Origin: a virus
Lineage: Duplodnaviria > Heunggongvirae > Uroviricota > Caudoviricetes
Strand: one strand, 5' to 3'
DNA length: 7,146 nucleotides
IMG/VR virus record: IMGVR_UViG_2667528065_000010
Location: 1-7,146 of that record
Below are positions 1 through 7,146 of the stretch, one piece after another (within the stretch, counting starts at the first letter, position 1; each line of letters starts with the position of its first letter). The notes under the pieces are model-generated. The model was given only the letters and a program-made list of their open reading frames with translations, was not told the origin of the DNA and ran no database searches. The translations under genes were made by a program, and so were the position numbers.

Positions 1-216
1 CACAACATCCGAGGGCGGAGGCATCGTCCGCTGGCCCACAGAAGTCCGGAAAGTCATGGAAGGTCGTTGTTGGGAGGAGGTACAAATTCTCTCATGCAAA
101 AAATACGTAAAATCGATAATAGCTGGAAATAATTCAATACATGCACTCTCGAAAGTGCATCAGCCAACAAGCAGAACGTTATTGCATACAACGTTTCTGC
201 GGCATAATCCCAATGA

Positions 217-691: not shown

Positions 692-1736
692 TTATTTAGA
701 CGCAAGCGCCGCCTCAATTGCAGATAATCTTTGTCTTAATTCTGCGTTTTCTTCTTCCAGTGCTGTTATTCTGTCGTCTGACTCTCTGGCTACCTGAACA
801 AGCAAGCCAGTAACACCAGAATAATCTACTGTGTAATAACGTTCACCTTCTTCACCTTCCGATCCGCTCGCACCGTCCTGATATTTCATTGCGGAACCTA
901 CAACTTCTGGGATTGCTTCCAGAGCTTCCTGTGCAATGACACCAGCATAGGGCATACCGTTTTCTTTAAGCGTGTATGTATAGCCGTTCATTTTACGGAT
1001 GCGGTCGGTTGCATTATCGATCACCTGAATGTTGTCTTTCAGATCCCGGTCGGAATGCTGGTTAAATGCGGTGGCATGACATGCACCATTAACGCTTAAC
1101 ATATAGGTGTTATCGGTATTTTTCTGCGCATAGAACATATAAGCGCCACAAGTCACGACACCGACTTCATAAACAACAGGACGGCTGGAGTTGCCCCACA
1201 ATTGAGCGAGTAACACCAGCATAAGCGGTTCCCTGTGTGTTTAATGTCATGGTTGACCCATGATTGGCATATTTGATCTGTAATGTGTCGGTGTAATCAA
1301 ATTTAATAAGCGCGTTACTTCCACGCTTGCTGTATGACATAAGGCAGTTACCCATTTTGAGGTATCCGCTGTCACCGGGAAAAATCATCGTACCGCCATA
1401 AAGGTTGGTAAAGTCCCAGCAAATGTTTGTCCCGTTATCGTTCAGGTTAAGGCGCGCCATTGCGTTACCTGGACTGTCTATCCATTTTTTGAGGTATAGT
1501 TCGCAATACGCATCCTCAACACCTGCCGTCCTGTGAGTTGAGCGGAGTTTTCTCCCAAATATAGCTCCGCTAGTTGGCAATACCTGCTGATACCATGAAG
1601 CAGACCAGTCACCAACGATTTCATCTTTGCTGTCTACATATAATTTTGTTGCGTAGCTTCCTTGATCGTTTTTTAATTTGCTAACGTCGGATTTTAGCGT
1701 TTTGATGTCATCAGGAATTACTGTCGATGTAGCCAT
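692..1736 (-). pseudogene. Short tail-fibre/tip protein with C-terminal intramolecular-chaperone (peptidase S74-like) domain, interrupted by a frameshift
   Basis: Two overlapping minus ORFs in different frames (1167..1736 and 692..1222). The upstream part begins at ATG 1736 with AGGAAG as RBS. The downstream part carries HSDRDLKDNIQVI…GYTYTLKENG…GVIAQEALEAIPEVV…ALEEENAELRQRLSAIEAALASK. The SDxxxKxNI motif followed by a C-terminal coiled coil is, as I recall it, the signature of the self-cleaving chaperone domain of phage tail fibres and endosialidases. Removing one G from the minus-strand G4 run (plus C4 at 1194-1197) gives a continuous ~347-aa protein (…GVTRSIVG-NSSRPVVYEV…). Confidence 0.6.
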
Positions 1737-1745
1737 TTTTCTTCC

Positions 1746-2027
1746 TCACATCCAGCCACGAAGTTGATGCTCAACAGCAACCACGTATTCATCGAATAAT
1801 GACGATATTTGCGAATCATTAATGATGCGCACGTTTACAAAATATCCGTCTTCCTTAACACATACCGGTTCGCCATCTTCAGTCAGTTCTCCGGTTTCTT
1901 TGTACACGTTACCTATCACGTCGATAAGAATATCATCCTGCATCGACTCGTCATCATAATAGCCAATACTCTCCATAAAGGCCGAAAAGTCGGCCCTGTC
2001 TTCAAATTTGAGTGTTAAATCTTTCAT
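1746..2027 (-). CDS. Hypothetical acidic 93-aa protein of unknown function
   Basis: ATG at 2027 with a strong SD (GGGGGAG, plus 2036-2042) 8 nt upstream. It starts 23 nt after the stf stop, and its TGA sits 9 nt before the next gene's ATG, so it is translationally coupled on both sides. Rich in Asp/Glu. I recognise no family. Confidence 0.65.
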   Translation of the reverse strand: MKDLTLKFEDRADFSAFMESIGYYDDESMQDDILIDVIGNVYKETGELTEDGEPVCVKEDGYFVNVRIINDSQISSLFDEYVVAVEHQLRGWM

Positions 2028-2050: not shown

Positions 2051-4456
2051 CTAAGTTAATTCTTTATGCCAAATGCGTAAATTTTTCACATGACCGAACA
2101 GGTGTCTGTTGCCACTGGATGATTGTCCACCGATATTAATATTACCGGCAGTATAACGTTGCAATGTATGCAGAGACGGGGAGCTGCCACCTAAAATTCC
2201 ATCAACAACAACCTGCAACTGTTTATCTTCTGTAAACTTAAAGCCAGTAACAAATTTCCTTTTCTCTCTATTCCCATATGCTTTATATTCTGTTTTTGTT
2301 CCTTTGCCATTGGTGATAATTAGCCTTTTACCACGAGTGGTAAAACCAAAATACATATAACTTTCATCAGAAACTTCAGTCGTCGCCCCTGTAATTGAGA
2401 TATTAAGCAAACGCGCAGAGCCTTCTAAATTAGGCATTTCAGAATCCCAATTAACATTAACTTCCATGAGAACACTAACTGGTGGAGTTGCCCAATTGAA
2501 AGGTATAGGTATGATTACCTGGTCACTTGCTCTCGTGGCACCGACCTCTGTTGTGATGATAAAAGATGACGCGTTTAGTCCCTTTTCGAATTGAGGGGTT
2601 GTTAACATTAATTTATCGCCAGACTTGATTGATCGTTGATGTGCTCCAAACTCAAAACGCCCATACATATTTTTTGCTTCTGGTGATTTGTAGGTAAACT
2701 CAACACGAATCCATCCATTAGACTCTCTGAATATGTTATAAGTTGCCGCCTCACCTCCAGAATAACTCAACATATCGCCAGTCTCGCAATCAATATATGC
2801 GCCAGCGGTCAGTGTGTTACTTGAGCCATCGTCGTTAACATATGATATTCTTGGACGCAACGTGATAATACCATCCCCACTTACTTTTTTAACTCTGCAG
2901 GATAAAGTAACTGATTCATTTGCCGAAACTGAAATAACCCTGGTATATCCAGTAGAAATTAATGTCGCCCTTTCAGTTGTGGATGTTTCTTTAACGCCAA
3001 ACAAACCATAACTGAAACCATACTCATCAACTCCCGTGGTAATAGTTAAGTTAGCAGTGTCATAGTTCCACGATACTGGTGTATTCGTATAAGAAAAAGT
3101 ATTCGTTCTCTGACCTTCAATGAGCAGACCATCTTTTTCAAAACGTGGTTCATTTATCGCTGATTCAGCAAAACACCCAGACTTATCTATATACGTTGCA
3201 GTTGACGCCCTGGTAAATGAAACAACCTTTTCAGACGGCAATGCAATAACATCGTCACCAACTGTGATGCTCTTATATCCAGGAGCAAACCCGGTAATCA
3301 TATCCAGTGAATCGTTAAACGGTATCCACACCTCAGGTAACGGCTGTAAGACATATTTATACGGCTCCGCAGCCTGGCTGGCGTACTCTCTGGCTGCATC
3401 TTCGCTTGCTTTAGCTGCCGTCTGGCTTGCTGCCGATGCTTTCGCTGAGTTCGCAGCCGCTGTTTCGCTCGCCTTTGCGTTGGTTTCACTGGTTTTTGCT
3501 GCTTTTTGAGCGGTTAGCTGATGCAGTGGCAGAAGCAGCCGCCGCACTTGCAGAACCAGCTGCAGCACTCTCGCTTTCGGCTGCTGCAGCCTGACTACTT
3601 TTCGCCGCAGTTTCGCTGGCTTTGGCATTCGTTTCGCTGGTCTTCGCTGCTGTCTGGCTGGACTTTGCGTTAGTTTCACTCGTCTTCGCAGCTTTCTGGC
3701 TGTTAGCCGCAGCAGTTGCTGATCCGGCTGCTGAAGTCGCAGAACCGGCCGCCGCACTCTCGCTTTCAGCTGCTGCATCCTGACTGCTTTTCGCCGCAGT
3801 TTCACTGGCTTTCGCATTCGTTTCGCTGGTTTTCGCTGCCGTCTGGCTGGACTTCGCGTTGGTTTCGCTCGTCTTTGCGGCTGTCTCACTGTTTTTCGCG
3901 TTGGTTTCTGATTTTTTGGCTGCAGTCGCGGGGAGGGGGCCGATGCAGTCTGTGAGGCCGCTGCCGCCTGTGCGCTGTTAGCTGCGTTCGTTTCTGAGGT
4001 TTTCGCCGCGTTCTTCGATGATGCCGCTGCTGTTTCGGATTTCTTTGCCGCCGCTGCGCTCTGAGAGGCGGCTTCAGCGTTGCGTGCCGCTTCTTCCACC
4101 ATTTCCTCAAAACGACGCAATGCCTCCGGCATGACATCATCTTCCGTCATGGCACCGAGAAAATCATTCAGCGTCCCCGGCTTAGAATCTTCATACACGG
4201 TGATGGTCCCGGCATGTGAAGGCGGAAAACCTTCAACCAGCAGGATAACGCTGTACTGGCCATACTCAACATCCATGCTGTAACGCCCGGCTTCATCCGG
4301 ATCTTCAGAGGCCACCGTGTTCACCAGATTTTCAGAGGCCACCGTGTTCACCAGTACCGTGGTGCTGTTACGCTTTGCCTTCAGTTGAATAGTGCAGTTC
4401 TGTATTGGTTTTCCCGCACCATCTTTCAGCACACCTGAGATTTTTACTGCTGCCAT
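2051..4456 (-). CDS. stf: Side tail fibre protein: lambda Stf-like N-terminus, Ala/Ser/Thr-rich repeat shaft, non-lambda C-terminal domain (possibly lectin/LamG-like)
   Basis: Likely start is ATG at 4456-4454 (MAAVKISGVLKDG…), with GGAG 5 nt upstream; the ORF-track start at 4462 is a GTG two codons further up. The N-terminal ~170 aa closely match my recollection of lambda Stf (MAVKISGVLKDG…NCTIQLKA…EAGRYSMDVEYGQYSVIL…FPPSHAGTITVYEDS…). The middle has AAKTSETNAKA-type repeats. The C-terminal ~480 aa are beta-rich and end …RHLFGHVKNLRIWHKELT. The ORF is continuous, but about 140 internal codons are in an alternative frame (see findings). Confidence 0.82.
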   Translation of the reverse strand: MAAVKISGVLKDGAGKPIQNCTIQLKAKRNSTTVLVNTVASENLVNTVASEDPDEAGRYSMDVEYGQYSVILLVEGFPPSHAGTITVYEDSKPGTLNDFLGAMTEDDVMPEALRRFEEMVEEAARNAEAASQSAAAAKKSETAAASSKNAAKTSETNAANSAQAAAASQTASAPSPRLQPKNQKPTRKTVRQPQRRAKPTRSPARRQRKPAKRMRKPVKLRRKAVRMQQLKARVRRPVLRLQQPDQQLLRLTARKLRRRVKLTQSPARQQRRPAKRMPKPAKLRRKVVRLQQPKARVLQLVLQVRRLLLPLHQLTAQKAAKTSETNAKASETAAANSAKASAASQTAAKASEDAAREYASQAAEPYKYVLQPLPEVWIPFNDSLDMITGFAPGYKSITVGDDVIALPSEKVVSFTRASTATYIDKSGCFAESAINEPRFEKDGLLIEGQRTNTFSYTNTPVSWNYDTANLTITTGVDEYGFSYGLFGVKETSTTERATLISTGYTRVISVSANESVTLSCRVKKVSGDGIITLRPRISYVNDDGSSNTLTAGAYIDCETGDMLSYSGGEAATYNIFRESNGWIRVEFTYKSPEAKNMYGRFEFGAHQRSIKSGDKLMLTTPQFEKGLNASSFIITTEVGATRASDQVIIPIPFNWATPPVSVLMEVNVNWDSEMPNLEGSARLLNISITGATTEVSDESYMYFGFTTRGKRLIITNGKGTKTEYKAYGNREKRKFVTGFKFTEDKQLQVVVDGILGGSSPSLHTLQRYTAGNINIGGQSSSGNRHLFGHVKNLRIWHKELT
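3474..3930 (-). repeat. 189-bp-period tandem repeats (about 2.4 copies, ~90% identical) encoding the Ala/Ser/Thr-rich fibre shaft
   Basis: Plus-strand landmarks recur at a 189-nt offset: gcagaacc at 3550 and 3739; gttagc at 3513 and 3702. One sub-segment shows a 190-nt offset (tttgcgtt at 3474 and 3664), which reveals a 1-nt indel between copies. Confidence 0.85.
4301..4354 (-). repeat. 27-bp tandem duplication (26/27 identical) inside the stf N-terminal domain, in frame
   Basis: 4301-4327 versus 4328-4354 differ at one base. It encodes LVNTVASEN-LVNTVASED, whereas lambda Stf as I recall it has a single VNTVGSE at this point. Confidence 0.85.
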
Positions 4457-4466
4457 ATCCACTCCA

Positions 4467-4494
4467 CAAAAAAGCCCGCCTGAACCGGCGGGCT
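4467..4494 (-). terminator. Rho-independent terminator downstream of lom
   Basis: Minus-strand agcccgcc-ggttca-ggcgggct (8-bp GC-rich stem; plus 4473-4494) followed by tttttt (plus A-run 4467-4472). It sits just upstream of the stf RBS (GGAG) and start codon. Confidence 0.65.
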
Positions 4495-4520
4495 GTCATA
4501 ACACTGTGTTACCTGGCTAA

Positions 4521-5144
4521 TCAGAACTTATAACCGACACCCACGATGAAACCGTCAGTGCGCCAGTCACCACTGCCGGAGCCTTCATAAGCAATATCAA
4601 TGGCCACGGATTCGGTCGGGTTAAACTGCACGCCAGCTCCCCACGCCAGAGACGTGTTGCTGTGGCGACCGTCATCACTTCCGGTCAGCACATCGTGCGT
4701 TTTCCCCTTGTTGTCAGTTACGCGGAGGTAATCCCCGGAAAAAGTCGAAACACGGCTGTAAGCCATACCCGAAACACGGCTGTAAGCCATACCCGCCATC
4801 GCATACGCGCTGAACCATTCATTCACGCGCACAGACGGCCCCGCCATCACGCTGAACCAGCGGTTACGCACGGAATCTTTATGCCAGCGGGTATCGCTGT
4901 AACGGGTCAGCTGACGATTCTTGTATCCTGCATAACTGAATGACGTCACCAGCCCCAGCGTGTCCGTAAATTCATAACGGTATTTCACGTTAATGCCCTT
5001 CAGGTCATCACTGCCTGGCATATCAGTATGGGTCTGAAGATACCCGGCGCTTAGTGTGGACTGATGCTCTGCTGCGCTCGCTGGCGTACCAGCGGCAACC
5101 AGCCAGACTACTGCGGACAGAATAACAGCACATAATTTACGCAT
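4521..5144 (-). CDS. lom: Lom family outer-membrane protein (Ail/OmpX/PagC-like 8-strand beta-barrel), 207 aa
   Basis: ATG at 5144 preceded by GAGAGG. N-terminal signal peptide MRKLCAVILSAVVWLVAAGTPASA-AE. C-terminus …VAIDIAYEGSGSGDWRTDGFIVGVGYKF, as I recall for lambda Lom, ending in the aromatic residue typical of OM beta-barrels. Position immediately after J as in lambda. Confidence 0.92.
   Translation of the reverse strand: MRKLCAVILSAVVWLVAAGTPASAAEHQSTLSAGYLQTHTDMPGSDDLKGINVKYRYEFTDTLGLVTSFSYAGYKNRQLTRYSDTRWHKDSVRNRWFSVMAGPSVRVNEWFSAYAMAGMAYSRVSGMAYSRVSTFSGDYLRVTDNKGKTHDVLTGSDDGRHSNTSLAWGAGVQFNPTESVAIDIAYEGSGSGDWRTDGFIVGVGYKF
4747..4794 (-). repeat. Perfect 24-bp tandem duplication (2 x gaaacacggctgtaagccataccc) inside lom, in frame
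   Basis: Read directly: 4747-4770 is identical to 4771-4794. It duplicates eight residues (…MAGMAYSRVSGMAYSRVSTFSG…). Confidence 0.9.
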
Positions 5145-5165
5145 AATTACCTCTCGCTTTTCTGC

Positions 5166-5192
5166 AATAAAAAAGGCGTCATTTCTGACGCC
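5166..5192 (-). terminator. Rho-independent terminator downstream of J
   Basis: Minus-strand sequence ggcgtca-gaaa-tgacgcc (7-bp perfect stem, 4-nt loop; plus 5175-5192) followed directly by tttttatt (plus A-run 5166-5174). It lies between the J stop (5212) and the lom RBS. Confidence 0.6.
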
Positions 5193-5211
5193 CGTATTGG
5201 GGTTATAAAAT

Positions 5212-7146
5212 TCAGCTGATACTGATGCCTGCAGTGGCTTTCTTCATCACAACAACCAGCAAATCGCTGATACTTGCTGTGGGATACCAACCATTTACCC
5301 ACCATGCTGATACAGAAAACTCCAGTGTCATTACACCACTGCCTGCAGGCATATCAATAACACCCGTGTAAATCAGAGTATTATCCAGAGCCGTTCGGTT
5401 ATAAATTTCAGCCCCGTTTTTCTTCACTATCAGGCGGCATGACGAATAAGTATCGCTATTCTCCCGCTCATGTCTGGCACCGCAGAAAGCCACCGCTGGA
5501 ATAACAATTTGCCGGTCAAACGACTGATCGTCATAAACCCTGACGGTAATAGTCCCTGATGGCCACCGCTCCGGTGCACGGGAGTCCCGGGGGAAAGCTT
5601 TGCCCACTGTTTTAACGAGATCGCCTTCAATCTGGTTCGCGGACAGTTTTCCCAGAACCCGACAGTTCTCGTTAATCGTGACATTATTGAGCGTCCCGGA
5701 GTTCGCATTCACGTTACCGCTGATATCGGCATTTTTCGCCGTCAGCCGCCCGTCCGGTGTCAGGGAAAATACCGGAGGATTGCCGCCACTGGTAATGGTG
5801 GGAGCCGTCAGATACTTCAGGAACACTTCGTTCATGAATATCTGGTTGCCCTGCGCCACAAACATCGGCGTTTCATTCCCGTTTGCCGGGTCAATAAACG
5901 CGATACGGTTAGCGGCAACCAGGAACTGGCTCAGTTTGCCTTCCTCCGTATCCTCCATACTAAGGCCAAGCCCCGCGACATAATGCCTGCCGTCTTCGGT
6001 CTGCTCAATTTTGACGCCCCACATGGCATTCCATTTATCGTTGGCGTCCTTCCACTCTTTCGAAAACTCCTCCAGTTTGCTGGCGTTATCCTCCTCCAGT
6101 TTGCTGGCGTTATCCTCCGTCAGCTCGACTTTTTCCAGCAGCTCCTTGCCGAGATGGGATTCGGTTATCTGGCCTTTGAAAAAATCCAGGTAACCTTCCG
6201 CATCATCGCTCGGCTGACCAACAGCCTCCACGAATGCCGATTTGCCAACGGTGTTCACACTGCGGATATAAAAGTAATAATCATGGCCCGGTTTGATATT
6301 GATACTGGCAGCTATCCAGTACAGCGCCGTACCAAGATAGCGGGCTGTGGTCTCAACCTGCCTGATATCGGTAATCCGCTTTTCCGAGAACCAGAACTCA
6401 AACTGTACCGTCGGATCATAAACCGCAAGATGCGGCGTGGCAGTTATCTGAAAATAGCCCGGCGTCAGCTCAATCCGCGACGGCGCTGCCGGTGCGGCAA
6501 TCCGGAACGATACCGATGCCGGATCGCCCTGCTGTCCCCACGCATTTACCGCCCGGACCGTCAGCGTGTAACGCCCCAGCGCCAGTTGCCTGAAGCGGTA
6601 TGTGGTTTCCGTCGTCCTGGCCGTGCTGACCAGCCGCTCACTGCCGTCATCCGCTGCCACGGTCAGGCGAAGCATAAAGCTCACCCCCTTCACCACCTTC
6701 GGCGTATCCCAGCGCGCCAGCACCTGATACTCCCCGCTGTCTGAGGTGACTTCGGCAGTCAGGTGCTGCACCGCAGGCGGCGTGACACCATTCACCGTGC
6801 CGCTCTGGTCGCCGTCAAAGTGCGCCCCGTTATCCACGATGGCCTCTTTTTCCGGCACATGCTGCACGGCGGTGATGGCATACGTGCCGTCGTCGTTCTC
6901 ACGGATACTCACGCAGCGGAACAGGCGCTGGCGCAGCGTCGGCAGCTTCAGCCCCCATACGCTGTATTCAGCAACACCGTCAGGAACACGGCTCACTTTT
7001 ACCTTCACGCCGTCGGTGACGGACTGAACCTCCACGCTGACCGGATTGCCACTTCCGTCAACCAGACTTATCAGCGTGGTACCGGAGGATGGCAGCGTGA
7101 TTTCACGGTCGAGCGTCAGCGTCCGGGTCTGGCTGTTCACCGCCAG
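5212..7146 (-). CDS. J: Host specificity / tail tip fibre protein J, C-terminal ~644 codons; 5' end lies beyond the right window edge
   Basis: Minus-strand frame is open from the window edge to the TGA at 5212-5214. The ORF-track start at 7140 is only an internal GTG. Translation contains fibronectin-III-like segments ([27 protein letters not shown]) and ends ...[32 protein letters not shown], matching my recollection of the lambda J C-terminus (receptor-binding region). Gene order J-lom-stf agrees with lambda. Confidence 0.93.
6067..6114 (-). repeat. Perfect 24-bp tandem duplication (2 x ctcctccagtttgctggcgttatc) inside J, in frame
   Basis: Read directly: 6067-6090 is identical to 6091-6114. 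In the J frame it duplicates eight residues (…[24 protein letters not shown]…). Confidence 0.9.

Follow-up and report, generated by a model that had tools for sequence, protein, structure and literature searches.

Comparison with Described Side Tail Fibres

The closest described systems are the side tail fibre (Stf) proteins of phage lambda. In Ur-lambda, residues 102–393 of gpStf constitute the proximal coiled-coil shaft (PMC12617516), and stf of the laboratory phage lambda PaPa differs from that of Ur-lambda by one frameshift (PMC12617516). The window considered here, by which we mean the whole 7,146-nt stretch of DNA that was analysed, carries a gene of this type. All of its genes lie on the minus strand:

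5212–7140, minus strand: 3' part of J (tail tip), an ORF that runs off the contig end
4521–5144, minus strand: lom, an ORF of 207 aa
2051–4456, minus strand: stf (side tail fibre), an ORF of 801 aa with an N-domain, a repeat shaft and a C-domain
3459–3893, minus strand: 189-nt (63-codon) tandem repeat of the stf shaft (Tandem Repeats Finder: 2.3 copies, 82% matches, score 581)
1746–2027, minus strand: 93-aa ORF, from the ORF list
692–1736, minus strand: a further tail-fibre gene, encoding a Peptidase_S74 chaperone domain, present as two ORFs (1167–1736 and 692–1222)

The order J, lom, stf is that of a lambdoid tail module and is common to the window, UPEC132 and the phages 2G7b and PhiR46_1. 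The prophage region adjoins sitD, beside which lies a truncated tail fibre assembly gene (tfa). A profile search placed PF08400, the N-terminal domain of prophage tail fibres by which they attach at the collar, at residues 3–141 of the deposited Stf (E = 2e-63; 212.7 bits, where the cutoff is 26.6). The corresponding score for the UPEC132 protein was slightly higher, at 229.3 bits, because the N-domain of the window Stf contains a 9-aa duplication (see below).

In several respects, the window gene resembles an Ur-lambda-type stf, sharing with it the gene order, the PF08400 domain, a long shaft rich in Ala, Ser, Thr and Lys and a putative C-terminal receptor-binding region. By homology to Ur-lambda gpStf, the shaft is predicted to be a proximal trimeric coiled coil, within which residues 174–315 would fall. 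Unlike the Ur-lambda type, the window protein has a lectin-like C-domain of the GTA_spike_fiber type (NF048003; residues 445–643, E = 6e-18) instead of a lambda/T4 gp37-like tip, its gene is followed by the 93-aa ORF and the S74-chaperone fibre gene instead of tfa, and 142 of its shaft codons are out of frame as deposited. With lambda PaPa it shares a fibre-altering frameshift inside stf (PMC12617516). The PaPa change, however, is a single real and uncompensated mutation that abolishes the fibres, whereas the window has two compensating insertions with adjacent apparent miscalls, found in one draft contig only.

The Shifted Segment of the Shaft

The stf ORF spans positions 2051–4462 and encodes 803 aa, or 801 aa when counted from the ATG at 4456. 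Its N-terminal frame reads ...SQTASA, continues as PSPRLQPKNQKPTRK...LHQLT and then as AQKAAKTSETNAK.... The middle part of this translation comes from a single segment:

3511–3931, minus strand: stf shaft segment in a shifted frame, about 141 codons, yielding a 142-aa basic, Pro-rich stretch

This stretch corresponds to Stf residues 174–315 and contains 33 R and 17 K (50 R+K), 17 P, 1 D and 0 E, with a pI of 12.0. Read in the native frame, the same DNA encodes repeats of the AAKTSETNAK type, in which 98 of the 142 residues are A, S or T and there are no R and no P (pI 8.1). The second frame over the shaft reads ATAAKKSETNAKNSETAAKTSETNAK...ASANRSKSSKNQ up to a TGA stop. As deposited, the Ala/Ser/Thr-rich shaft, which in an Stf links the N-domain to the receptor-binding domain, is thus not continuous, being interrupted by 142 residues rich in R, K and P. 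When both switch sites were reverted to the state found in the homologues, the ORF became 800 aa long and its shaft was native throughout.

The preliminary description of the window had reported that some 140 codons of the stf shaft are in an alternative frame between two compensating indels, and that the native repeat is found in the other frame, where it ends at a TGA. Both statements are borne out by the frame translations. That the shaft segment is out of frame is confirmed as a true property of the deposited sequence.

Intact Relatives and the Two Switch Sites

End-to-end matches to the window were obtained in 15 complete E. coli genomes, over 7,060 nt compared to 7,146 nt in the window. 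The exact window sequence was found in none of 5,426 complete E. coli genomes, the best matches being 86 nt shorter. Between the window and UPEC132 (NZ_CP040456.1) there are just four isolated SNPs, at 3813, 3380, 2053 and 2000; all remaining differences are either insertions in the window or substitutions a few nucleotides away from those insertions. In UPEC132, YDC107 and the isolated phages 2G7b, PhiR46_1 and HannyBb, stf is read in one continuous native frame, and in UPEC132 it is an ORF of 799 aa without an internal stop. The frame conserved across 3505–3935 in these intact homologues, a check proposed in the preliminary description, is accordingly the native one. None of them aligns continuously to the basic frame, as would have been seen if that frame were ancestral; neither the alignment of homologues nor the protein search (see below) gave such a case. 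The window ORF leaves its homologues exactly between SQTASA and AQKAAK.

Alignment showed the reference state at both switch sites in all five of these sequences. The sites are as follows:

3930–3939, minus strand: switch site 1, CCCCCTCCCC in the window and AAACTCC in all homologues (pairwise and multiple alignments)
3509–3512, minus strand: switch site 2, AACCGCTCAAAAA in the window and AACAGTCAAAAA in all homologues (alignments)

In its wider context, site 1 changes from GGCAAACTCCGCG in the reference to GGCCCCCTCCCCGCG in the window. The difference consists of three A>C substitutions (3936–3938) and an insertion of CC (placed at 3932–3933), for a net change of +2. At site 2, an A>C substitution at 3512 is combined with a C inserted at 3510, for a net change of +1, by which the frame is restored. 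Together the two sites, about 420 nt apart, add 3 nt.

These alignments alter the account of the switch points in the preliminary description. It had ascribed the second switch to a change in an A5/T5 run (3504–3508), but this run is identical in all homologues, and the extra base is the C at 3510, next to the A>C at 3512. Similarly, the C5-T-C4 run at 3930–3939 had been taken for a slipped homopolymer; it is no older homopolymer but arose through the change from AAACTCC to CCCCCTCCCC. The observation that the copy of the 189-bp repeat at the second site exceeds its paralogue by 1 nt holds, the two reading AACCGCTCAAAAA and AAC AGC CAG AAA, respectively.

Occurrence of the Variants and of the Basic Segment Elsewhere

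In a collection of 153 billion genes, the exact 801-aa Stf and the exact 207-aa Lom were found in one contig only, AOQI01000137.1 (15,862 bp), which belongs to the NCBI draft assembly GCA_000397365.1. No identical copies of either protein occurred elsewhere in the protein collection. The site-1 variant, searched for as a 91-nt query, was absent from 2,553 homologous places in 1,670 complete genomes, with a best identity of 94.5%, equivalent to the five differences described above. The site-2 variant, likewise searched for with a 91-nt query, was absent from 1,512 homologous places in 981 complete genomes (best identity 97.8%). Exact-pattern scans gave no match to the site-1 variant in metagenome contigs or IMG/VR, and none to the site-2 variant in IMG/VR contigs, while the reference state was present in at least 120 IMG/VR contigs for site 1 and in 60 for site 2. 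A real double frameshift would be expected to turn up again in other sequences obtained independently from its lineage, and neither indel appeared in the sequences searched.

A protein search of 5.8 billion clusters returned no Stf that contained the whole basic segment. The matches that were found covered at most 39% of it, and were either 109-aa ORFs in the alternative frame of the shaft or short pieces whose frame changes repeatedly.

The Open Alternative Frame

In the intact stf of UPEC132, no stop interrupts the +1 frame of the shaft over 281 codons (95–375), whereas the remaining frame has nine stops within codons 150–330. Since the +1 frame is open in intact relatives, any +2 insertion followed by a +1 insertion will leave a long ORF, and the openness of the ORF is therefore no evidence of selection. 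Chance would suffice to explain why the shifted segment has no stops; the open frame is a matter of composition, the repeat being rich in GCN, ACN and AAR codons.

Among the five intact homologues, 28 of the 39 variable sites in 3510–3938 are at third codon positions of the native frame. The shifted segment has a single isolated SNP, at 3813, which is silent in the native frame (GCC to GCG) and would replace P with R in the shifted frame. In these comparisons, selection is visible on the native frame of the stf shaft.

Quality of the Source Contig

Alignment of the source contig to UPEC132 over 15.1 kb revealed 17 insertions and no deletions. The insertions are 24, 24, 27, 2, 1, 1, 3, 1, 3, 4, 1, 1, 25, 26, 7, 31 and 23 nt long, with exact tandem duplications accounting for most of the longer ones. 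Under equal odds for insertions and deletions, the chance of obtaining nothing but insertions in 17 indels is about 8e-6. Five of the 17 have lengths that are multiples of three, compared to 5.7 expected if the reading frame were ignored. Three of the long insertions are located in the window:

4303–4329, minus strand: 27-nt near-exact tandem duplication in the stf N-domain (LVNTVASEN/LVNTVASED), absent from all relatives
4772–4795, minus strand: private 24-nt exact tandem duplication in lom (GMAYSRVS twice)
6095–6118, minus strand: private 24-nt exact tandem duplication in J (EDNASKLE twice)

All three of these (24, 24 and 27 nt) happen to be in frame, a point that counts against an artefact.

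The insertions also break genes other than stf. The core gene bluF has five private insertions in a 540-nt stretch, mostly tandem duplications, and is split into three ORFs. None of these insertions occurs in the 4,916 complete genomes with bluF, all of which map the 621-nt stretch to about 505–509 nt. A 4-nt duplication lies in sitB, where the gene call gives 239 aa, compared to a sitB gene of 828 nt in UPEC132. The S74 fibre gene, a single gene of 346 aa in UPEC132 and relatives, is split by an additional C at 1208; after it comes, at 1150–1157, a cluster consisting of an inserted TGA and three substitutions. With bluF, sitB and the S74 fibre gene all broken, the surroundings of the two switch sites are not of the normal quality that would be expected around a real double frameshift. 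They are what would be expected around errors in a draft consensus, namely anomalies in conserved single-copy genes, those in bluF being absent from the 4,916 finished genomes. To judge from the comparison, such an insertion-only burst cannot plausibly have taken place in a strain with four isolated SNPs per 7 kb.

Origin of the Basic Segment

From the comparison of sequences, we consider that the basic segment is, with a probability of about 0.93, an artefact of the assembly or consensus of the deposited low-quality draft, and that the prophage in truth has a normal, intact stf of the lambda type. The artefact would consist of two local consensus errors in AOQI01000137.1, one of +2 nt with three A>C miscalls and the other of +1 nt with one. 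Because the frame between the two errors is free of stops, a gene caller would then see a single ORF with a polycationic middle. From the comparison we infer that the reads would lack support for the variant bases. By chance, exact restoration of the frame would occur in roughly one third to one half of random pairs of frameshifting errors, which is another observation on the side of real mutations.

The preliminary description had proposed as one possibility real compensating frameshift mutations that give the fibre a highly cationic linker. In that case, the insertions of +2 and +1 would have arisen in the prophage of this strain, and the fibre, if made, would have a 142-aa polycationic, Pro-rich stretch instead of part of its coiled-coil shaft. 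This is consistent with an stf ORF that is open from end to end and with a net change of exactly +3, and frameshifts do occur in natural stf genes, as in lambda PaPa (PMC12617516). The prophage, with its truncated tfa beside sitD, may also be a defective remnant that is free to decay; these last two points likewise count against an artefact. We nevertheless regard real insertions as very improbable. Among thousands of homologous copies, only one draft contig has the variants, all aligned homologues are native, and 15 more insertions occur in the same contig, among them the five in bluF that are absent from complete genomes, with similar insertions breaking conserved chromosomal genes. Real insertions would thus imply an implausible burst of insertions only, against a background of just four isolated SNPs in 7 kb. 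The A>C changes that adjoin each indel would be unusual for slippage mutations, and the open shifted frame requires no selection. Moreover, 17 prolines would presumably not fit into a coiled-coil shaft such as residues 102–393 of Ur-lambda Stf (PMC12617516). That about 140 shaft residues have in fact been replaced by a Pro-rich polycationic linker with 50 R+K seems to us less probable still. Were the insertions real, the locus would show that a fibre can tolerate or exploit a frame-shifted shaft in nature.

A purpose for the +1 frame itself, whether it is reached by programmed ribosomal frameshifting or holds an overlapping gene within the shaft, could be suspected from the 281 codons over which this frame is open in intact relatives, and from the annotation in RefSeq of a 109-aa "phage tail protein" there (WP_072007368.1 and relatives). 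We give this almost no credence. The homologues produce a full-length Stf in a single frame and need no frameshift; they have neither a conserved two-frame architecture nor conserved shift sites, and the switch points of the window are private changes, not conserved slippery sites. The bias towards third codon positions (28 of 39) gives no hint that a second frame is constrained, Pfam and NCBIfam yielded no match to the 109-aa ORF, and the openness of the frame is that expected from the composition of the GCN/ACN/AAR-rich repeat.

As to the mechanism behind an artefact of the draft, the paired homopolymer sequencing errors suggested in the preliminary description were right in substance, in that errors are indicated, and wrong in kind, the changes being A>C substitutions plus insertions of C. 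Homopolymer errors of the 454 or Ion type were rejected as the specific mechanism, since the window has the same A5 run as its homologues and the added bases do not extend any run in the reference. The pattern is like that of consensus and indel errors in short-read drafts, which give spurious frameshifts and short tandem duplications, in being private to one assembly, limited to insertions, blind to the reading frame and spread over bluF and sitB as well as prophage genes, but the window errors are not of the classic homopolymer-length type. We also considered that paralogous stf copies from several prophages might have been merged into a chimeric consensus, and no paralogue with the variant bases was found in complete genomes. 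Since there are errors in single-copy genes of the contig as well, collapse of repeats is a possible but unnecessary explanation.

The basic stretch is almost certainly not a real feature, judging from the intact relatives, and would be of little biological importance. It does hold a lesson about data quality. Repeat shafts that are GC-rich and of low complexity have long open alternative frames, and paired indel errors in them will therefore yield intact-looking ORFs of exotic composition. Gene callers and protein databases accept such ORFs, and the chimeric 801-aa protein is now part of a public protein collection. A related annotation fault is seen in finished genomes, where an intact stf is split and the 109-aa ORF in the alternative frame is given the name "phage tail protein".

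Short Duplications and Disrupted Genes in the Window

Three genes in the window contain short tandem duplications, all of which preserve the reading frame:

J, window 6095–6118, minus strand: 24 nt, in frame, by which EDNASKLE is doubled
lom, window 4772–4795, minus strand: 24 nt, in frame, by which GMAYSRVS is doubled
stf N-domain, window 4303–4329, minus strand: 27 nt, in frame, by which LVNTVASEN is doubled

None of these duplications was found in the near-identical complete genomes (0 of 15) or in the phage homologues. They are probably assembly artefacts of the same class as the stf frameshifts.

The second tail-fibre gene, which carries a Peptidase_S74 domain and encodes 346 aa in the complete E. 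coli reference genome UPEC132 (NZ_CP040456.1), is split in the window into two ORFs (1167–1736 and 692–1222). The split is caused by one additional C at 1208, followed 51 nt downstream by a cluster at 1150–1157, in which an inserted TGA is accompanied by three substitutions. At the 3' end of stf, the window has a T at 2053 where UPEC132 has a G; this converts GAG to TAG, and the stf of the window is therefore 8 codons shorter at its end (...HKELT* vs. ...HKELTEAQMGESI* in UPEC132). This T could be a real SNP or a further error. Toward the sitD end, there are two more small clusters, at window 17–21 (+CCT with T>C) and 169–170 (+T with G>T), with an insertion and substitution signature identical to that of the two switch sites in stf.

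Annotation of stf in Finished Genomes

In UPEC132, the intact 799-aa stf ORF (positions 4007–6406 of the UPEC132 locus) is carried in RefSeq as three annotated pieces, and the same is true of a second finished genome (L002):

Piece 1: pseudo N-terminal fragment
Piece 2: a “phage tail protein” of 109 aa (WP_072007368.1), read from the shaft in its +1 alternative frame, the basic one
Piece 3: the C-terminal part, named as a protein with a “phage head spike fiber domain”

The 109-aa alternative-frame family is repeatedly present among Escherichia entries and had no match in Pfam or NCBIfam. This “phage tail protein” looks like a propagated annotation artefact.

The Source Contig beyond the Window

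The draft contig from which the window derives (AOQI01000137.1) has five private insertions of 25, 26, 7, 31 and 23 nt in bluF (contig positions 13945–14479), all of them exact or near-exact tandem duplications, which cut the gene into three ORFs. Among 4,916 complete genomes, none of the five was found. On the same contig, sitB contains a 4-nt duplication (9028–9031) and is called shorter than its UPEC132 counterpart. In the ymgL/icd-remnant intergenic area (11645–11705), ≈15 densely packed substitutions and a +1 insertion relative to UPEC132 were observed; this patch may reflect real local divergence or recombination rather than error.
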